This document shows positions 5,226 to 43,443 of a stretch of DNA of 43,443 bases, one piece after another. Origin of the DNA: a virus (taxonomy: Duplodnaviria; Heunggongvirae; Uroviricota; Caudoviricetes); IMG/VR virus record IMGVR_UViG_2703718823_000009. The stretch is one strand, 5' to 3'. A program made the translations under genes and the position numbers. The notes beneath the pieces are model-generated. The model saw only the letters and a program-made list of their open reading frames with translations, was not told the origin of the DNA and made no database searches. How positions within the stretch are numbered: position 1 is the first letter of the stretch; every line of letters begins with the position of its first letter.

Positions 5226-5800
5226 CGGGTCAGCCATAACCTCAGTTGTTGTTTCAGTGCATACCCCAGCTGTTTCGGCATTTCCGCAGCAATGATGTGG
5301 TCGCGGGCATCTTCAAATGCCTGTGTCAGCGGTCCGGACAGCGGGATTTTCACCACATCAATGGGGTAACGATTTTTGCCATCAATACGCCGCATCACAT
5401 GCCAGCGACCATTCGCCAGTTGCTGAATAAACGCATCCCGGAAAAGATATTTACCCACCTTCAGCACACTGCCACGGTACTGCAGTTTTCCACCACGCCG
5501 GGCCAGTCTGACCCGGGCTGTCCCCAGCTTAATGGCGGGCAGATTGCCCCGGTTAACGCGGATCCTGGCCGTCATTTTTCCTGACGGACTGGCTTTAAAC
5601 ACCCGGACACGCTGACGTACCAGTTTCAGGGGGATCCCTTTCACCTGGTTATCTCCCGCAACGGTATTCCCGGCAACCTGCCGGGTGGCAACCGAGACCG
5701 CTTTCTGTGCCACACGGTTTATCGCCCATGCGCTGGCCTGTGGCACCATACGGGTATCAAGGCTGTTCAGATTGCGGATGGCATTCTCAAGCCCCTTCAT
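5222..5800 (-). CDS. tail completion protein Z-like
   Basis: MKGLENAIRNLNSL...NRGNLPAIKLGTARVRL...NGRWHVMRR...NRYPIDVVKIPL matches recalled lambda gpZ; 192 aa. Confidence 0.8.
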   Translation of the reverse strand: MKGLENAIRNLNSLDTRMVPQASAWAINRVAQKAVSVATRQVAGNTVAGDNQVKGIPLKLVRQRVRVFKASPSGKMTARIRVNRGNLPAIKLGTARVRLARRGGKLQYRGSVLKVGKYLFRDAFIQQLANGRWHVMRRIDGKNRYPIDVVKIPLSGPLTQAFEDARDHIIAAEMPKQLGYALKQQLRLWLTR

Positions 5801-37343: not shown

Positions 37344-38754
37344 ATGTCCAAAAATGACCGAATGGTGGGCATCAGCCGCAGAACACTCGTTAAATCAACC
37401 GCGATAGGTTCTCTGGCGCTGGCTGCAGGCGGTTTTTCTTTACCGTTCACCCTGCGCAGTGCAGCGGCAGCGGTACAACAGGCCAGCGAAAAAGTGATCT
37501 GGGGTGCCTGTTCCGTCAACTGTGGTAGCCGCTGTGCACTTCGTCTACATGTTAAAGATAATGAAGTCACCTGGGTGGAAACTGACAACACCGGCAGCGA
37601 CGAGTATGGCAATCATCAAGTACGCGCCTGTTTGCGTGGTCGATCCATCCGTCGGCGTATTAATCATCCCGATCGCTTGAATTACCCAATGAAACGCGTG
37701 GGCAAACGCGGCGAAGGCAAATTCGAACGGATTAGCTGGGATGAAGCCCTGGATACTATCGCCAGTAGCCTGAAGAAAACCGTCGAACAATATGGCAATG
37801 AGGCTGTATATATTCAGTACTCTTCGGGGATCGTTGGCGGCAATATGACCCGCTCTTCGCCATCAGCCTCGGCGGTCAAACGCCTGATGAACTGCTACGG
37901 CGGTTCACTCAATCAGTATGGCTCCTACAGCACCGCGCAAATTTCCTGTGCCATGCCCTACACCTACGGCAGTAATGATGGCAACAGCACCACGGATATT
38001 GAAAACAGCAAGCTGGTCGTGATGTTTGGTAACAACCCGGCAGAAACCCGCATGAGCGGCGGTGGCATCACTTATCTTCTTGAAAAAGCGCGCGAGAAAT
38101 CGAACGCCAAAATGATTGCTATCGATCCGCGATATACCGATACGGCTGCTGGTCGTGAAGATGAATGGCTCCCTATTCGCCCGGGCACCGATGCCGCGCT
38201 GGTTGCGGGTATTGCCTGGGTATTGATTAACGAAAATCTCGTTGATCAACCTTTTCTCGATAAATACTGCGTCGGCTATGACGAAAAAACCTTACCCGCA
38301 GATGCACCCAAAAATAGTCACTATAAAGCCTATATTCTTGGTGAAGGTGATGATAACACAGCGAAAACGCCGCAGTGGGCTTCGCAAATTACCGGTATCC
38401 CGGTAGACCGTATCATCAAACTGGCGCGTGAAATTGGCACAGCAAAACCCGCTTATATCTGCCAGGGCTGGGGGCCGCAACGCCAGGCAAACGGCGAACT
38501 GACTGCACGCGCTATTGCTATGTTACCTATTTTGACGGGCAATGTCGGCATCAGCGGCGGAAATAGTGGCGCGCGTGAATCGACCTATACCATTACCATA
38601 GAACGCCTGCCGGTGCTGGATAATCCGGTCAAAATGTCAATCTCCTGCTTCAGCTGGACAGATGCTATCGATCATGGTCCGCAAATGACGGCAATCCGCG
38701 ACGGCGTCCGCGGCAAAGATAAACTGGATGTGCCCATTAAGTTCATCTGGAACT
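37344..38754 (+). pseudogene. ynfE: ynfE (Tat-exported molybdoenzyme) truncated after about 470 codons by insertion of foreign DNA
   Basis: Twin-arginine signal MSKNDRMVGISRRTLVK and DmsA-like sequence through ...PIKFIWN; the frame then runs 15 unrelated codons into the insert to a stop at 38801; full-length YnfE is about 800 aa (recalled). Confidence 0.8.
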
Positions 38755-38810
38755 TCAAGGACTTGAAGCGGACCCTTAGTAGGTCTGAGGTCCTGCATTG
38801 AGTCAAGGAC

Positions 38811-38843
38811 TTTGTGTCAGGCTTTGTGTCAGCCTTGTGTCAT
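38811..38843. repeat. short tandem repeat TTTGTGTCAG(G/C)C x3 near the element terminus
   Basis: ACTTTGTGTCAGGC TTTGTGTCAGCC TTGTGTCATT read directly. Confidence 0.6.
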
Positions 38844-38995
38844 TAGACGGGATGTCTAGACGGCTGGTCAGGACCCCGGTGGCCTCGGTCTGGACTTGAG
38901 GCGGGGCTATGGGGGAGAAGTCTGCTGGCTTAATGTATTAGATGGTCATTCACATTTTTCTGTCAGAAACCATCGGTCCCACTGTGAGTCCAAAC

Positions 38996-39151
38996 CTAAG
39001 CCCCCAGAAGCCCACCCACAGCCTTAGACAGAGTGTCGAATACATTCACACCGAGTCGACCGGAGAGGACCATATAGAGACCCACAGAGAGGAGCACGAG
39101 TTTATAGACCAGAGTCAGGAGGGACCTTAGGTCTGCGGAAGTCATGGACAT
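38996..39151 (-). CDS. small hydrophobic protein (51 aa) with strong RBS
   Basis: GGAGG 4 nt before ATG; MSMTSADLRSLLTLVYKLVLLSVGLYMVLSGRLGVNVFDTLSKAVGGLLGA; below ORF-track cutoff. Confidence 0.3.
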   Translation of the reverse strand: MSMTSADLRSLLTLVYKLVLLSVGLYMVLSGRLGVNVFDTLSKAVGGLLGA

Positions 39152-39204
39152 AAAGCCTCCTTCGTCTATTGTACTACTGCACTAGATAACTAGTACAAAA
39201 CAAA

Positions 39205-39229
39205 GGTCCAGACCATTGGTCCAGACCAT
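39205..39229. repeat. tandem repeat GGTCCAGACCAT x2
   Basis: GGTCCAGACCATTGGTCCAGACCAT read directly. Confidence 0.6.
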
Positions 39230-39389
39230 AGTTATCATGATGATTGGAACGATTGAACGGTAGGCACTTTACGTCTCACCCACTGTTCAGCTTCAGCCAG
39301 TGACCAGCATAGCCGCTTATAGACTCTGCGTGTCATCCAGATTGTTGCTTGATATCGTCCACCCTCCACAGGCTGTATAGATGTCTTAA

Positions 39390-39629
39390 TCACAGTGACA
39401 GGCCACCACCTGAAGTCCTGCTGATATTCAGTCCAGACTTACCTCTGCTCATGGTCTTACCTCCCTCGGTCTCCTGACCTTGGGTATCGACTACAGCTTG
39501 CTGAGCGTCATCTGGAGGAGCTACAGGAGGAGCTACAGGAGGCGGGACCGAAGCCCCACCTTGAGTCCCACCACCACCTGTCAGGCCCTTGGCGATGGAC
39601 CTGAAGCCTTTACTAATGCTCTTACCCAT
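39390..39629 (-). CDS. Gly/Pro-rich small protein (79 aa), low complexity
   Basis: ORF with internal PPVAPPVAPP repeat from a 12-bp tandem DNA repeat; no clear RBS. Confidence 0.3.
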   Translation of the reverse strand: MGKSISKGFRSIAKGLTGGGGTQGGASVPPPVAPPVAPPDDAQQAVVDTQGQETEGGKTMSRGKSGLNISRTSGGGLSL

Positions 39630-39634
39630 TGGTC

Positions 39635-40621
39635 TTACGCTTCGGTCTTGGTGAACTTCAGGCGTTTGACTACAGGCAGGACGGCAGTAGCTGAGCCAGT
39701 GCCCATCTTGATGGTCGTAGCAGCTTCAGCGACAACGTACACTTTACCGAGGATTTCCAAGTCGTGGGACTGAGAGTCGCCATCACGTGAAAGGACGACC
39801 GTAATATTCTCGCCATCGTGACGGAAGCAACCGAAGCTCAGAGCCGTGAAGCGTTTAGCCAGCATGAATACACCCTTGTCTTCACCGTTGTAGTAGGCGA
39901 TGTCTGTTCCCAGCATATCGACGATAGCGTCTTCACCGGAGAAGCCTTGCTTAGCAGCCAGACGGGACAGTGCTTTCAGTTGGCTCTCATGAGCGATAAT
40001 ACCGTAGTTAGACACCTCAGAACCGAAAGAAGGCTCTGTGTTCTCATACAGAGCGTCCATGATAGCGTCTGCCTTAGCGGTCAGGCTACCAGTCAGGACA
40101 GGAAGCTCTACGGTCTTCAGCAGCTTAGAGGATTCCAGAACGTCGACCATGTGAGCGTTGATGGTACGGACCACATTCTCACAGATGTTCATAGCGTCCT
40201 GCTGAAGTGTGCCCTGAGTGAATCCGGTGGATGACTTGGCGTCCCAGAGAGTGGTCTGCTCAGAGATGAGAATAGCCTGCTCGATTGGTTCGACCACGAT
40301 TTCTTGTCCAGACGGAATGGTCACGACTTCAGGTCGCTTGCCACCACGGACAGGAACGACCACAGAGCGGTCAGCCAGAGTGTGGGCAATGATTGGGGTC
40401 GGTAAGCTGTTACGGGTCGGCAGGACTTCTACAGGGAACGGGATGTTCTCTTGAGCGTCCTTAAGTACACCGTTCAGCATAGCCTTAACCGTCTTAGCTA
40501 ACTGGAGGGCGTAGACCTGCGGGTCAGCGTTAGTCGGCAGACCTTCATTGACCTGAATGTTGTCGGTATCGGTGATGCGTACTGGCTCAATGCCAAACTG
40601 GAAAGCGTCTTTAATCGTCAT
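39635..40621 (-). CDS. hypothetical protein (328 aa), largest gene of the cassette
   Basis: ATG at 40621 with TAGGAGA RBS 9 nt upstream; no family recognised by eye. Confidence 0.55.
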   Translation of the reverse strand: MTIKDAFQFGIEPVRITDTDNIQVNEGLPTNADPQVYALQLAKTVKAMLNGVLKDAQENIPFPVEVLPTRNSLPTPIIAHTLADRSVVVPVRGGKRPEVVTIPSGQEIVVEPIEQAILISEQTTLWDAKSSTGFTQGTLQQDAMNICENVVRTINAHMVDVLESSKLLKTVELPVLTGSLTAKADAIMDALYENTEPSFGSEVSNYGIIAHESQLKALSRLAAKQGFSGEDAIVDMLGTDIAYYNGEDKGVFMLAKRFTALSFGCFRHDGENITVVLSRDGDSQSHDLEILGKVYVVAEAATTIKMGTGSATAVLPVVKRLKFTKTEA

Positions 40622-40705
40622 AATAATCAATCTCCTAAATTAGTTTAAATACTGTGAGTCCTCAAAACTGAGGAGTCCCTAACATCGGGTCAGGGACTGT
40701 GTGTC

Positions 40706-41197
40706 TTATAAGCTGTCCAGCCAGTTACCGCCTGACTCAAGGTCAGCGACAATAGCGGCACGGGAGCGACCAGCGGAATGGGTTGCACTGCGGAGGTTCT
40801 CACCATAGGTCCGGCGTTCAGCTTTGACTTGTTCGCGGCGCTGTAGCTCTTTCTGCCACTCTGCATCGGTCATGTTCTCTTCACGCATACGCTCTTTCTG
40901 AGATGCCAGCTCTTTAGCGATACGCTCAGCCTCAGCTCGTTTGTTAAGCTGGCGGCGACCATAGGCGGTCATCAGGTCATTACTGAAGAAGTTGCCAATA
41001 GCTACGCCAGCTTCAGCCAGAGCTTCCAGTAACTCCATTGCCTCGCGGCTGGTAGACGGCAGGCCTGACAGGTAGCCCGGAATGAGGGTCTTGATAGCGA
41101 GCGACAGCGGATAGGGCTGACCGTCCAGACTCACAGTGTTTTCATAAAGGTTGATGTCGGTGACTGACAGCTTCCAGTTGTTGTTGTTGAACATCAT
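40706..41197 (-). CDS. hypothetical protein (163 aa) with charged helical C-terminal half
   Basis: ATGATG start with AGAGGAG RBS; C-terminus ...AERIAKELASQKERMREENMTDAEWQKELQRREQVKAERR... Confidence 0.5.
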   Translation of the reverse strand: MMFNNNNWKLSVTDINLYENTVSLDGQPYPLSLAIKTLIPGYLSGLPSTSREAMELLEALAEAGVAIGNFFSNDLMTAYGRRQLNKRAEAERIAKELASQKERMREENMTDAEWQKELQRREQVKAERRTYGENLRSATHSAGRSRAAIVADLESGGNWLDSL

Positions 41198-41293
41198 AGG
41201 TAATTCTCCTCTTGAGAGTTGAGACTATCGGTATCGCAGACGCAGTAGCGCCTACGGGTCTCCCCGCATCGGTCATCTCAAAAGGTTTTAAAA

Positions 41294-41461
41294 TTAGGCA
41301 GACAGTTTCATAGCGACCAGTTGCGCTATCAGCTCGTCTCGGGATTGGTGCTGGCGGGTCTCATCTTCCGGGTCTAGACCAAGCTCTCTGAGGAGGACTT
41401 CAGTCCGGTAGCCACGGTAACGGAGAGTCATGCGGCCCTCAGGTGTGCGTGGGTCAATCAT
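41294..41461 (-). CDS. small translationally coupled ORF (55 aa)
   Basis: ATG 1 nt after the KilA-N gene stop, preceded by AAGGGAGG; MIDPRTPEGRMTLRYRGYRTEVLLRELGLDPEDETRQHQSRDELIAQLVAMKLSA. Confidence 0.3.
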   Translation of the reverse strand: MIDPRTPEGRMTLRYRGYRTEVLLRELGLDPEDETRQHQSRDELIAQLVAMKLSA

Positions 41462-41462
41462 C

Positions 41463-42221
41463 TTAGAGTCCTCCCTTAGCGCACAGACGAACCAGCTCGA
41501 CCTTGTTGGACTTAAGCCACTCGTAACCCTTGGTGAGGACCTTAAGCCCCTCCTGACCGTTATAGTGGTTATCCTGAAGACGGTAATAGCCGTTCTCCAG
41601 ACCCTTAGGATTGAAGCTGGTCATCCAGCCACCTGACGAGATGTCAAATACAGGCTGTCCTCGACCGTCCAGCTTGCGACTATAGAAGGGATTAGCTATA
41701 CGCCCTGACTTCAATACGGCATTAAGAGCCTTGGCTGATACCAGCTTTGTACCTAACCTGAAGTCGAGATTCTTAAGACACTCTGTCAGGGTGTGGCCCT
41801 GCTTCGGGTTATCCAGCTTTTCCAGCCAGTTACGGGCTATAGGCTTGAGACCCTTAAGTTCCTTGGAGTCCTGCGCCAGCGCCTTAGCTTCCGACACTTT
41901 GTCGTTACGTAAAGCGATGAAAGCACGGATGACCTTAAGGTAGAAATCAGGTGAGACCCACATCGCATAGGCAATAGCCGCCTCTTCAGTAGCCCATGTC
42001 CCCGGAGTCGAACCACCATGAGCAACATGCAAATTTGCATCTTGGTCAAGAAGCGTCCTGACGCTAGAACGCCACTGACCCGGCTCCTTAGCAGATGGAA
42101 GCTCAAGCTCTTTATGTAGCTCGTTCAGGTTCCACATACGGTCCTGATTACAGGCCCAGTGATAGCCGTCAACGATGACAGGAAGAACTACTTCATGCTT
42201 CATTAAGGGTTGAGTTGACAT
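41463..42221 (-). CDS. KilA-N domain protein (possible antirepressor/regulator)
   Basis: N-terminal ...GTWATEEAAIAYAMWVSPDFYLKVIRAF... matches the KilA-N signature as recalled; AAGGAG RBS 9 nt before ATG. Confidence 0.6.
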   Translation of the reverse strand: MSTQPLMKHEVVLPVIVDGYHWACNQDRMWNLNELHKELELPSAKEPGQWRSSVRTLLDQDANLHVAHGGSTPGTWATEEAAIAYAMWVSPDFYLKVIRAFIALRNDKVSEAKALAQDSKELKGLKPIARNWLEKLDNPKQGHTLTECLKNLDFRLGTKLVSAKALNAVLKSGRIANPFYSRKLDGRGQPVFDISSGGWMTSFNPKGLENGYYRLQDNHYNGQEGLKVLTKGYEWLKSNKVELVRLCAKGGL

Positions 42222-42568
42222 ATCGTTGTACTCCTTTTGTTATGCCTCCTGAAGTCACACCCTGAAAGCCTACTCAAGCCCCCAACGATAGGGAGACTCA
42301 CAGGCAACAGGAGACATACAGAAAGACTTGAGGTAATAAGGTCGTGTGAAGACCATGTTAACTTTTTCCTACTGGCTACTAGATAACTAGCGTGTCTCCA
42401 TATGTATAAAGGCGGGACCGCATGTCAGGACGAGCTGTAAGGACTTCCAGATGGTGAGCGGTGATAAACTTAAGCCAATGAGTAGTGAGTAGACGAGCTA
42501 CTAACAGATGACTGAAGAACGCTAACGAGCTGGAGGTCATACAGGAGGTCTGACAGAGGCGGAAGCAG

Positions 42569-42591
42569 GTCTCCTATAGTGATAGTTTAGG
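42569..42591 (-). promoter_or_regulatory. phage single-subunit RNAP promoter-like motif P2
   Basis: Minus strand CCTAAACTATCACTATA|GGAGAC (-17 to +6); compare SP6 ATTTAGGTGACACTATAGAAG and T7 TAATACGACTCACTATAGGGAGA. Confidence 0.5.
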
Positions 42592-42596
42592 GTCTG

Positions 42597-42619
42597 GTCC
42601 CCTATAGTGAGTGCTTATT
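42597..42619 (-). promoter_or_regulatory. phage single-subunit RNAP promoter-like motif P1
   Basis: Minus strand AATAAGCACTCACTATA|GGGGAC; positions -10 to +3 identical to T7 consensus (ACTCACTATAGGG), -11/-12 differ. Confidence 0.5.
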
Positions 42620-43082
42620 CCATCATCCCTTTATCACAGAGCACCTTCTTCATGTTCACAGAGGTAGCCTGAAGTACAGAGTTAACGTGGCGTAGGTAGC
42701 GAGGAGACGGGGAGCGACCCGTGATTGCCGTGTAGGAGATGTCAGTATTGCGGGAGAAGATATCGTTGGTGCCATATAAGGCAGCGAACAGGTAGGCCTT
42801 GGAGACCGGGAGTCCCACGCTGTTAGAGAGACCTGAAGGACGTGAGAGTCCTGTAAACACATCGTCTGCCCATGGGTAGGCCTCAGCAAGCTGCGTATAG
42901 GAGAGACACCCAGTCTCAATCAGCCACAGCCTCACAGACCGATTGTCGATGACCACAGGCGGCTTACCTGTACGGGCCTTAGGTTCATCATAGGTCGGCG
43001 CTGGTAGCTGCTCATGGTCGAGGTCTCCACCGAAGAAGGCCTCATTGTCGGACTCTGAGTAGCATTGAATTGTAATAGCCAT
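42615..43082 (-). CDS. hypothetical protein (155 aa), first gene of the minus-strand cassette
   Basis: ATG at 43082 with AGAGGAGG RBS 7 nt upstream; P3 motif 80 nt upstream. Confidence 0.5.
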   Translation of the reverse strand: MAITIQCYSESDNEAFFGGDLDHEQLPAPTYDEPKARTGKPPVVIDNRSVRLWLIETGCLSYTQLAEAYPWADDVFTGLSRPSGLSNSVGLPVSKAYLFAALYGTNDIFSRNTDISYTAITGRSPSPRYLRHVNSVLQATSVNMKKVLCDKGMME

Positions 43083-43156
43083 GGATGGGCCTCCTCTTAA
43101 GGTTGGCTACTTGCAGTGGGTAGCAGCGGTTTCGGTTAGATGGAGGACAGGCGTGT

Positions 43157-43179
43157 CTCTCCTAGGGTGATAGTTAAGG
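43157..43179 (-). promoter_or_regulatory. phage single-subunit RNAP promoter-like motif P3
   Basis: Minus strand CCTTAACTATCACCCTA|GGAGAG; shares an extended 28-bp match with P2. Confidence 0.4.
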
Positions 43180-43237
43180 GTCTGAGCCCAAACTTCCGAA
43201 GGTGAGGGATTATTGTAAGATACTGAAAGCTAATGGA

Positions 43238-43324
43238 AAGTTGGAGGGACCTGAGTTTAGGACGCAGTTTAAATAAGACACCAAGTTGGAGGACCTGAGT
43301 TTAGGGTGCAGTTTAAATAAGACC
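43238..43324. repeat. tandem direct repeat, 2 units of about 44 bp (iteron-like)
   Basis: AAGTTGGAGGGACCTGAGTTTAGGACGCAGTTTAAATAAGACACC followed by AAGTTGGAGGACCTGAGTTTAGGGTGCAGTTTAAATAAGACCAC. Confidence 0.7.
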
Positions 43325-43386
43325 ACAGACAGACTTAGAGTCGGACAGCCGAAGGCGAACCAGTGGGCCTATAGTCAGGAGGGATT

Positions 43387-43443
43387 ATGATTATTATCAC
43401 CCTCCATAACTTCAGTCGTAAGCGACTCGTCAGAACCGTATTG
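43387..43443 (+). CDS. start of a divergent plus-strand gene (partial)
   Basis: AGGAGGG RBS 3-4 nt before ATG at 43387; MIIITLHNFSRKRLVRTV... open to window end. Confidence 0.3.
   Translation, partial: MIIITLHNFSRKRLVRTVL

Follow-up and report, generated by a model that had tools for sequence, protein, structure and literature searches.

cf-PICIs such as EcCI2 are ~10–15 kb in length; they carry a full head module (portal, protease, connectors and small terminase) and borrow only tails, from temperate helpers. PICMIs and the marine VEIMEs are very small integrative satellites (~5–7 kb), and PICMIs exploit virulent phages. They do not encode a capsid protein, their DNA enters full-size helper heads as concatemers, and promoters for a phage RNA polymerase are unreported in them. 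When their helper infects, the satellites P4 and PLE (11–18 kb) become active and redirect the size of the capsid, using the helper coat protein with a satellite external scaffold (Sid, TcaP), and have their own replication proteins. Among eukaryotes, Fischer and Hackl in 2016 reportedly described the virophage mavirus integrated in Cafeteria. It has its own capsid gene and mimics the promoters of the helper virus, whose transcription machinery thereby activates it at infection.

The gut 'mini' HK97 elements (~8.9 kb) are likewise small and integrative, with capsid, scaffold and integrase but no portal, terminase or tail. They carry RepA or a helicase together with regulators, are read as tailless temperate viruses, and a link to a helper RNA polymerase is unreported for them (bioRxiv 10.1101/2025.06.18.659913). 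DNA containing a T7 promoter/origin and a pac region is replicated and packaged by T7 (Chung and Hinkle 1990, cited in PMC9860248). Such transducing plasmids were made in the laboratory; they are packaged into phage heads as ~40-kb concatemers and have neither capsid gene nor integrase.

The locus examined here lies at the end of a window of 43,443 nucleotides, the whole stretch of DNA analyzed (Table 1). The window holds the left 4.7 kb of an integrative element ~6.56 kb long, which is likely to be a satellite whose helpers are virulent T7-like phages (Kayfunavirus and relatives). In contrast to cf-PICIs it is 6.5 kb in length, has capsid and scaffold genes only, and is keyed through its promoters to virulent T7-like phages. 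Unlike PICMIs and VEIMEs it has a capsid gene and promoters of phage-RNA-polymerase type, and it has none of the marker genes of P4 and PLE. Its phage promoters and right-end stem-loop recall the T7 transducing plasmids, and its gene content the gut elements, compared by description. Mavirus has a capsid of double jelly-roll type and encodes a packaging ATPase and a polymerase itself; the likeness to it is one of analogy and not homology.

Table 1. Features of the element within the window
Feature	Position	Strand	Basis or remark
Left junction and att core CATCTGGAACT	38739..38754	.	Terminates 5' ynfE fragment
Three direct TTGTGTCA(G) repeats	38808..38845	+	Putative arm-type integrase binding sites
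GGACTCACAGT motif	38981..38991	-	Resembles T7-group left genome end TCTCACAGT; second copy 40651-40661
tm51, 51-aa hydrophobic protein	38996..39151	-	ORF downstream of terminator-like hairpin
Terminator-like hairpin, then TTTGTTTTGT	39205..39227	-	Late operon end
52-aa basic protein, pI 10.5, GTG start	39235..39393	-	ORF
T7 gp7.3 virion assembly/adsorption homologue, 79 aa	39390..39629	-	PHROG 1320, E 1.8e-11
HK97-fold major capsid protein, 328 aa	39635..40621	-	Shell fold matches encapsulins
Hairpin between scaffold-like and capsid genes	40674..40698	-	
Putative scaffolding protein, 163 aa, acidic, charged helical stretch	40706..41197	-	Position and composition
p55, 55-aa core protein	41294..41461	-	Kept in all relatives examined
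KilA-N domain protein, 252 aa, conserved C-terminal domain	41463..42221	-	Pfam KilA-N, E 1.3e-9
Pyrimidine-rich non-coding leader, 346 nt	42222..42567	-	Between promoters and KilA-N gene
Phage-type promoter A, CCCTAAACTATCACTATAGGAGACC	42568..42592	-	18/18 with phiYIO1-1 nine-promoter consensus at 42573-42590
Phage-type promoter B, AATAAGCACTCACTATAGGGGACC, T7/T3-like	42596..42619	-	Tandem, 28 bp upstream of promoter A
155-aa protein, variable cargo slot	42615..43082	-	ORF
Variant phage-type promoter, CCCTTAACTATCACCCTAGGAGAGA	43156..43180	-	3 mismatches to type-A consensus, match at 43161-43178
Two 44-bp direct repeats with CCTAAACT (promoter A upstream half)	43236..43324	-	
28-bp stem-loop GGAGGGTGATAATAATCATAATCCCTCC	43378..43405	-	Common to T7-like phages

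Insertion site and boundaries

As an earlier note on this DNA had claimed, ynfE homology stops at about 38754. The ynfE frame is open up to this position, at an 11-bp att core. Positions 38739–38754 read AAGTTCATCTGGAACT, and the core CATCTGGAACT is present again at the opposite end of the element in E. coli UMNK88 (junctions at ~20755 and ~27318 of L001). Insertion within ynfE is polymorphic: the ynfE part of the query was matched in 5313 of 5426 complete E. coli genomes, and at least 80% of 38000–43443 in only 22 of them. The other junction and the integrase, which the note had advised seeking, are both found in complete copies. That of UMNK88, for example, closes with a 540-aa tyrosine integrase followed by the 3' part of ynfE; the integrase gene lies just past the window end. 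At least 22 complete E. coli genomes have this junction together with its matching counterpart and the 3' part of ynfE, and the same is seen in many metagenome contigs. This argues against a chimera of assembly at 38754, an explanation we discount almost entirely. No point in favor of a chimera was found.

The terminus is repeat-rich, as described earlier, with TTGTGTCAG repeated at 38808–38845. The repeats, with a 20-bp stretch TTTGTGTCAGCCTTGTGTCA, are found again beside the integrase end of the UMNK88 copy and are therefore probably binding sites of arm type for the integrase. Metagenome contigs of ~6.5 kb prove to be integrated copies flanked by short stretches of host DNA (ynfE or tRNA-Gly), and no free forms were seen among them.

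Promoters and a stem-loop in common with T7-like phages

Motifs resembling T7/SP6 promoters had been noted upstream of the first and second genes, and they prove to be far above chance. CTAAACTATCACTATAGG is the consensus of nine promoters of Kayfunavirus phiYIO1-1. Allowing up to three mismatches it has two matches in the 43-kb window where 0.03 are expected, both within the element and on the gene strand. The UMNK88 copy of promoter A is identical at 24 of 24 positions to the promoter preceding the phiYIO1-1 capsid gene. Promoter B has the T7 core but differs at the −12 and −11 bases. The variant promoter CCCTTAACTATCACCCTAGGAGAGA lies upstream of the 155-aa gene, with a sigma70-like site just upstream of it at 43239–43212. 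The genes of the element all share one strand, behind promoters that match exactly those read by the helper single-subunit RNA polymerase.

Relatives of the element have tandem promoters of two specificities. The second type, TTATACCCTCACTATAGG, matches nine promoters of Kayfunavirus Ro103C3lw, and one copy has 23 nt in common with the Ro103C3lw phiOR promoter. In a Citrobacter-type relative (L006), a promoter annotated in Citrobacter phage CR8 is reproduced at 31 of 31 positions, and CR8 itself has 11 such sites. The distant relatives L023 and L025 show promoter-like motifs of their own, repeated or in tandem. The 66 related loci (647 kb) contain CACTATAGG 93 times on the strand of the capsid gene and not once on the opposite one, with ~2.5 expected per strand, and tandem pairs 20–40 bp apart are present in 20 of the 66. 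Variation in these promoters falls at −12 to −8, where T7-group promoters differ in specificity. They have a conserved −7 to +2 core, CACTATAGG, lineage-specific −12 to −8 bases and matches to sequenced phages, as T7-group promoters should.

The divergent gene reported to start at 43387 was not confirmed. It is a short ORF of 19 or more codons inside the 28-bp stem-loop, and its frame is not conserved in UMNK88. The stem-loop folds as a 6 + 4 bp hairpin. The UMNK88 version, which differs from that of the window by one loop base, matches ~130 phage records at 100% over 28 bp, and the window's own is 97% identical to phiYIO1-1 over 37 bp. In T7-like phages it is located between a phiOR-type promoter and gene 19.5, near the right genome end. 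Packaging by T7 requires the pacB site, which is bound by gp18 (PMC9860248).

Gene content and relatives

Every ORF and size listed earlier for the minus-strand cassette was confirmed. Strong ribosome-binding sites had been ascribed to nearly all; strong Shine-Dalgarno sites are found on most. Pfam, PHROG and NCBIfam scans of all ORFs recognized only the KilA-N protein, the gp7.3-like protein and the integrase. The gp7.3 homologue also matches Pfam VirionAssem_T7 (E 0.0057) and has 40% identity with phiYIO1-1 gp33 (E 6e-15). Like cf-PICIs, the element has its own HK97-fold major capsid protein, and this protein was absent from all 50,697 phage records in which it was sought. The 163-aa protein has no family match; its composition, and a place immediately upstream of the capsid gene in all relatives, make it a putative scaffolding protein.

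Of 5426 complete E. coli genomes, 310 carry the scaffold–capsid module, which is found at several sites in the chromosome and annotated as hypothetical in every case; we found no published description of it. Near-identical modules occur in Escherichia, Shigella, Citrobacter, Leclercia, Buttiauxella and Enterobacter. The conserved set comprises the integrase, a KilA-N protein or in its place a Rha-domain protein, p55, scaffold and capsid, in a unit of 6.33–6.72 kb; architecture and unit length hold down to 25–33% capsid identity. The KilA-N protein has 32% identity over its full length with that of the distant element L023 (E 6e-37). Neither a family match nor a phage homologue was found for the 155-aa protein, and its slot holds other genes in relatives.

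The window lacks a single-subunit RNA polymerase, as had been observed. The suggestion that one might be encoded beyond 43443 fails, since complete copies (~6.3–6.7 kb between att repeats) contain no RNA polymerase, DNA polymerase, portal, terminase or tail. Their size and gene content exclude an integrated T7-supergroup phage, which had been offered as an alternative; every Autographiviridae prophage marker (RNA polymerase, T7-type DNA polymerase, portal, gp10-type capsid, terminase) is absent from them. A decayed remnant of a temperate T7-supergroup prophage would fit the T7-type promoters and the gp7.3 homologue. Yet the same compact ~6.5-kb att-bounded unit recurs in many genomes and genera, holds not even a partial gene for an RNA polymerase, DNA polymerase, portal or terminase, and has a capsid unrelated in sequence to T7-type gp10 and missing from the phage records, making such a remnant very improbable.

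The 6.5-kb unit has no ORFs or domains for the cf-PICI markers (portal, prohead protease, head–tail connectors, small terminase). ORF scans revealed no PICI/SaPI master repressor with divergent regulatory module, primase/replicase with ori, terS or cpm, and there were no matches to the P4-like alpha primase-helicase, sid, psu, delta, cnr or alpA. PICMIs have no capsid genes, and here one is present. As in satellites generally, the element is integrative with an incomplete set of virion and replication genes.

The missing portal and terminase would also fit a 'mini virus' that is autonomous and has no tail, or a compartment of encapsulin type on an integrative element, independent of any helper; small elements with capsid, scaffold and integrase provide a precedent. 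The fold fits encapsulins, yet the gene is in an integrase-bearing element behind phage promoters, and a family scan found no known encapsulin cargo family within it. Moreover the precedent elements have RepA or a helicase and regulators, whereas this one has no replication gene, its only recognizable promoters are of phage type, and it shares the gp7.3 homologue and 28-bp stem-loop with T7-like phages. We consider helper independence decidedly improbable.

Proposed life cycle and further features

Given its own capsid gene and exact T7-like phage promoters, the element is most likely an undescribed phage satellite, active only upon infection by a T7-like phage. Dependence on a T7-group helper, proposed in the earlier note, is supported by the link to helpers through the Kayfunavirus and CR8 promoters, the gp7.3 homologue and the shared 28-bp stem-loop, and by the HK97-fold capsid. 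The element would stay silent as long as the cell is free of T7-like phages. Upon infection, the phage RNA polymerase would transcribe the operon of KilA-N, p55, scaffold, capsid and gp7.3 genes, and tandem promoters of differing specificity could provide a response to more than one helper lineage. Excision would be by its own integrase. The helper replisome would replicate the element, with the phage promoters serving for priming as they do at T7 origins. Its capsid and scaffold may form a small shell upon the helper portal and core, into which the helper terminase would package satellite DNA, perhaps via the shared stem-loop. Helper tails would complete the particle, and helper lysis release it.

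We give roughly an even chance to this particular combination of induction by promoter mimicry only, replication by the helper replisome from the promoters, and packaging through a mimic of a pac stem-loop into its own small shell on a stolen T7-type portal, core and tail. If true, it would mark the first family of satellites for T7-like virulent coliphages, a 6.5-kb provirus-like parasite whose tandem promoters would broaden its helper range, and in its logic a bacterial counterpart of integrated virophages.

Several observations count against a satellite. The capsid and scaffold proteins have no sequence similarity to helper gp10 and gp9, and co-assembly with a T7-type portal is therefore an assumption. 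Portal, terminase and replication genes are missing, no phage with the promoter B consensus was found, and the stem-loop is limited to the ynfE-type subfamily. The integrase gene is upstream of every phage-type promoter, and no good sigma70 promoter was found for it. A search of IMG/VR for the predicted attP junction was negative.

Promoter mimicry would itself suit a phage-triggered defence island, in which the promoters act as a sensor, toxic or interfering products abort infection, and spread occurs by other means. KilA-family proteins are known to be toxic, for example P1 KilA, to which homology was seen. Relatives contain defence-type cargo genes (DUF4145, HEPN-like), and evidence of packaging is absent from the attP search and the metagenome contigs. 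The candidate products are the KilA-N protein, a decoy capsid protein and a membrane peptide. However, the conserved pair of scaffold and HK97 capsid, the gp7.3 tail-assembly homologue and the tight 6.3–6.7 kb unit length despite varying cargo are hard to account for without particle formation, and near-identical copies in six genera suggest efficient horizontal transfer. A defence island is thus unlikely, and since known satellites both interfere and transfer, it is partly a sub-case of the satellite reading.

Some smaller features are shared unevenly among relatives. The 3' part of the leader (ctccctatcgttggggg ... aaaaggagtacaacgat) is conserved in L023, and a scan of homologous copies gave no Rfam match. 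The GGACTCACAGT motif also adjoins att in L023 and is missing from some relatives, and the 44-bp repeat is present as a single copy in UMNK88. Pfam and PHROG scans found no family for tm51, which has 80% identity in the otherwise divergent L006. The 52-aa basic protein is 98% conserved in a Leclercia relative (L009).

An integrative unit in ynfE

The homology to ynfE had been placed as ending at about 38754 in the earlier note, and the reading frame indeed runs to that position, where an 11-bp core lies within the junction bases (see the table). The core is found again at the opposite end of the insertion in complete copies. We compared 38000-43443 with 5426 complete E. coli genomes using megablast. 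The ynfE part is present in 5313 and the whole stretch in only 22; the insertion is therefore polymorphic rather than an artefact of assembly. The junction is real, and the probability of an assembly chimera is close to nil. ynfE has already been listed as a target of an integrative element, which was left uncharacterised (Mageeney et al. 2020, PMC7192596).

The complete copy in E. coli UMNK88 extends the element to the right. The annotated order is a 5' ynfE pseudogene, ~6.56 kb of foreign DNA, a 3' ynfE fragment and ynfF. The last gene of the insert encodes a 540-aa site-specific integrase (Pfam Phage_integrase, a tyrosine recombinase), so that the integrase and the 3' ynfE junction looked for by rightward extension are both present. 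The window ends ~80 nt before this gene. The TTGTGTCAG repeats recur beside the integrase end and for that reason are best read as arm-type integrase sites. The integrase gene is positioned upstream of the phage-type promoters, and its own promoter is not evident.

The predicted attP junction GTCCTTGAAGTTCCAGATGGACTCCAC is absent from IMG/VR, where matches to the element are prophage-style calls on isolate genomes and not virome evidence. Metagenome contigs of 6.2-6.9 kb were considered as free circles and rejected; they have no terminal overlap, and their ends are host flank (ynfE or tRNA-Gly). Upstream of ynfE, UMNK88 has a Qin-type cryptic prophage that also carries relBE, hokD and dicABC and is unrelated to the element. 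Rfam gave no match in homologous copies of the element itself.

Positions of features in the window and in related sequences. L001, UMNK88; L003, phage phiYIO1-1; L004, phage Peacock; other L numbers, loci with related elements
Feature	Sequence	Position	Strand	Remark
ynfE reading frame, 5' part	window	37344 to junction 38754		ORF
Junction bases AAGTTCATCTGGAACT	window	38739-38754		enclose 11-bp core CATCTGGAACT
TTGTGTCAG repeats	window	38808-38845
52-aa basic protein	window	39235-39393
Conserved leader end	window	42222-42330
Conserved leader end	L023	6330-6458
Perfect copy of phiYIO1-1 consensus	window	42573-42590	gene strand
Cargo slot, 155-aa protein	window	42615-43082
3-mismatch copy of phiYIO1-1 consensus	window	43161-43178
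Stem-loop GGAGGGTGATAATAATCATAATCCCTCC	window	43378-43405	gene strand	28 bp
Stem-loop	L003	40046-40081
Stem-loop	L004	450-480
tRNA-Gly(CCC)-type site	L013	2901-2974
tRNA-Gly(CCC)-type site	L016	3013-3086
tRNA-Gly(CCC)-type site	L010	2969-3042
Cargo slot, DUF4145 protein	L010	4777-5433		Pfam 2.6e-12
Cargo slot, HEPN-like 139-aa protein	L011	3576-3995		weak match
Cargo slot, 122-aa protein	L008	~5294-5660		p155-like by eye
IS66	L006	5009-7321
IS3	L008	3085-4330		inside integrase gene
IS3	L011	4800-6008		cargo region
422-aa capsid protein	L025	4347-5615		C-terminal Big_2 Ig-like domain
Qin-type prophage	L001	3566-3737, 9180-9232		sok and DicF RNAs (Rfam)

Promoters and a stem-loop in common with T7-like phages

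The sole phage DNA match of the region is 37 bp in phiYIO1-1, a K1F-like phage of T7 type that encodes an RNA polymerase of its own as well as an endosialidase tailspike. The nine promoters of this phage have the consensus CTAAACTATCACTATAGG. A perfect copy and a copy with three mismatches are the only matches in the 43-kb window, where 0.03 would be expected, and the T7/SP6-like motifs seen earlier are thus borne out. The UMNK88 copy is identical at 24 of 24 positions to the promoter immediately preceding the phiYIO1-1 capsid gene. The motif AATAAGCACTCACTATAGGGG (promoter B) lies 28 bp upstream of the perfect copy and has the T7 core, differing at −12 and −11; its cognate phage was not found. 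Sigma70-like sites are no commoner in the element than in shuffled sequence. As previously reported, no RNA polymerase gene is in the window, and the complete unit is without polymerase, replicase, portal, terminase or tail.

Many relatives have tandem promoters ~27 bp apart that pair the phiYIO1-1 type with TTATACCCTCACTATAGG. The latter type matches the nine promoters of Kayfunavirus Ro103C3lw, and one copy has 23 nt in common with the Ro103C3lw promoter downstream of the terminase gene. The genus Kayfunavirus has two promoter specificities, AACTATCACTATAGG in phiYIO1-1 and Peacock and AACCCTCACTATAGG in Ro103C3lw, and the elements hold both in tandem. L006 (41% capsid identity), which also sits in a ynfE gene, has a sequence that agrees at 31 of 31 positions with an annotated promoter of the Citrobacter phage CR8; this phage has 11 such sites. 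The more distant L023 (33%) and L025 (25%) each have promoter-like motifs of their own, repeated or in tandem. A count across 66 loci (647 kb) gave 93 occurrences of CACTATAGG on the strand of the capsid gene and 0 on the opposite strand, compared with ~2.5 expected per strand. Motif pairs 20-40 bp apart are present in 20 of these loci. The motifs vary at positions −12 to −8, where polymerase specificity is determined in T7, T3 and SP6 promoters.

The last ~110 nt of the leader are conserved between the window and L023 despite the 33% capsid identity. They contain a CTCCC-N7-GGGGG hairpin and, before the KilA-N ATG, AAAAGGAGTACAACGAT, and may form a regulatory or processing RNA structure. The leader has a single ATCTGTT, the class II T7 RNA polymerase pause signal, at 42509. 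We dropped that reading because the motif is not conserved in relatives and is absent from that place in the proposed helper phages.

The stem-loop at the right of the window folds into a hairpin of 6 + 4 bp. The UMNK88 version, with one loop base different, is 100% identical in ~130 T7-like phages that infect Escherichia, Salmonella, Klebsiella, Citrobacter and other hosts. Its location there is between gene 19.5 and the promoter that comes after the terminase gene; at the corresponding place Ro103C3lw has another sequence, which also forms a hairpin. Among the elements it is found only in the ynfE-type subfamily. Packaging in T7 and T3 requires a cleavage site together with a pacB site to which the small terminase binds, according to a passage of PMC9860248 that cites Chung and Hinkle 1990 and Fujisawa and Morita 1997. 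The stem-loop may be a mimic of pacB. The divergent gene placed at 43387 by the earlier note does not survive. What lies there is a small plus-strand ORF overlapping the stem-loop, without conservation of frame between the window and UMNK88, and not a gene. phiYIO1-1 has the loop in inverted orientation relative to Peacock and the ~130 other phages, with an HNH endonuclease gene inserted directly beside it. A possible mimic of a phage genome end, GGACTCACAGT, is not in all relatives.

The capsid protein and a proposed satellite of T7-like phages

The genes of the element are all on the minus strand, most with strong ribosome-binding sites, and the 252-aa protein has the KilA-N domain that had been claimed for it. 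Comparison of eight window proteins with Pfam, PHROGs, PADLOC and NCBIfam gave no match except KilA-N and a gp7.3-like protein. The latter, 79 aa long and rich in Gly and Pro, has a match to PHROG 1320 (E 1.8e-11) and a weak one to Pfam VirionAssem_T7. Its identity to phiYIO1-1 gp33, a 'virion assembly protein' homologous to T7 gp7.3, is 40% (E 6e-15). For the 155-aa protein (p155), tblastn against phages gave no match.

The 328-aa protein matches no sequence family, nor was a match found by tblastn in 50,697 phage records or by profile search among PDB sequences. Of 1.8 billion representative proteins searched with a profile, only 64 were relatives. A shallow alignment of 14 sequences gave an unusable AlphaFold2 model (pLDDT 41). 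On adding distant relatives from the profile search, an alignment of 39 of the 64 gave a confident model (pLDDT 83, pTM 0.77) of an HK97-fold capsid protein. Its closest structural neighbors are encapsulin-type shells. An autonomous tailless mini-virus or encapsulin-like element, comparable with the ~9-kb gut elements (bioRxiv 10.1101/2025.06.18.659913), is an improbable reading. The 163-aa acidic protein, which has a highly charged helical stretch, is by position and composition a putative scaffolding protein; its gene immediately precedes that of the capsid protein in every relative. Neither protein has sequence similarity to its counterpart in the helpers, and a BLAST comparison of the entire element with three helper genomes returned the promoters and stem-loop only, with no terminal-repeat similarity. 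That the element, with its gp7.3 homologue, is a decayed T7-like prophage is very improbable.

Judged from its sequence, the element is an integrative unit that pairs a capsid gene of its own with signals copied from phages of the T7 type. It is probably silent until such a phage supplies RNA polymerase. The helper polymerase would switch it on, and tandem promoters of unlike specificity would allow a response to several helper lineages. T7 origins reportedly comprise promoters plus a priming region, the primary origin having two tandem promoters. Replication of the element by the helper replisome might likewise be primed at its promoters, and this would account for the missing replication gene. 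The capsid and scaffold proteins would assemble into a shell on the portal and core of the helper, with the gp7.3 homologue acting in tail attachment or adsorption, and helper terminase, tails and lysis would provide the remaining steps.

Copies free of insertion sequences are 6327, 6447, 6495, ~6560 and 6715 bp in length. This constant 6.3-6.7 kb suggests a packaging constraint. One copy could occupy a small shell, which we estimate by volume scaling at ~T=3; T=4 satellites hold 11-15 kb. Alternatively, about six copies could fill a 39-kb head, given that 6 x 6.56 kb = 39.4 kb and Ro103C3lw is 39,389 bp.

We rate the element as a probable phage satellite, apparently undescribed in the literature searched. 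It falls outside the PICI/SaPI group, the P4-like elements, the Autographiviridae prophages and the PICMI, although the last are equally small. It also differs from cf-PICI in having the capsid gene only, yet these would be the closest in working, and the element resembles a cf-PICI cut down to capsid and scaffold. Its proposed mode of induction is like that of integrated virophages. Literature outside most subscription journals gave no account of the element or of a satellite of T7-like phages, only the ynfE target listing (Mageeney et al. 2020); as most subscription journals were not covered, a prior description may exist.

Few virulent phages are as well studied or as widely used as T7 and its relatives, which serve in therapy cocktails, as K1-capsule phages and in biotechnology. 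An element induced by them could alter the outcome of therapy, by interference with the phage or by gene transfer. If the satellite reading is true, reading the helper's own RNA polymerase would be a new induction logic among bacterial satellites, and capsid and scaffold on a foreign portal would be a minimal natural system for studies of capsid size control. The proposed steps are directly testable with available strains and phages.

Cargo and distribution of the family

We gathered relatives from Shigella, Leclercia, Buttiauxella, Citrobacter and Enterobacter, plus 60 metagenome contigs. The conserved core is the integrase, a KilA-N or Rha protein, a 55-aa protein (p55), the scaffold-like protein and the capsid protein. 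The genes that follow it (the gp7.3 homologue, the 52-aa basic protein and the 51-aa hydrophobic protein, tm51) are variable, as is the slot bounded by the integrase and the first promoter pair. This slot holds p155, a putative 122-aa relative (L008), a HEPN-like gene (L011 and L009) or a DUF4145 gene (L010, L013 and L016). Defense-type genes are among these, and the slot looks like a defense or cargo hotspot, as in other satellites. A non-transmissible defense island triggered by a phage polymerase is an unlikely alternative, though the least unlikely that we considered. The 52-aa protein has the pattern G-R-Y-x-A-x-I ... L-x-x-S-L-A-E-A-E-x-W, which recalls AP2-type DNA-binding domains, with no support from Pfam; on that likeness it might act in excision or regulation.

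Integrases of a second type are directed to tRNA-Gly(CCC). This lineage (30% identical) puts the capsid module at the 3' end of the tRNA gene, with an att repeat of 17-20 bp, TCCCTTCGCCCGCTCCA. The scaffold-capsid module is present in 310 of the 5426 complete E. coli genomes (~6%), EHEC lineages included. In these it is always chromosomal, in no more than two copies per genome, and annotated only as hypothetical. Insertion sequences interrupt several copies, with IS66 in L006, strain W444 and mussel ST536 and IS3 in L008 and L011, and part of the population is therefore probably immobilized. In the distant member L025 (59% GC, metagenome), the KilA-N gene is downstream of the capsid gene, so that gene order varies across the family.
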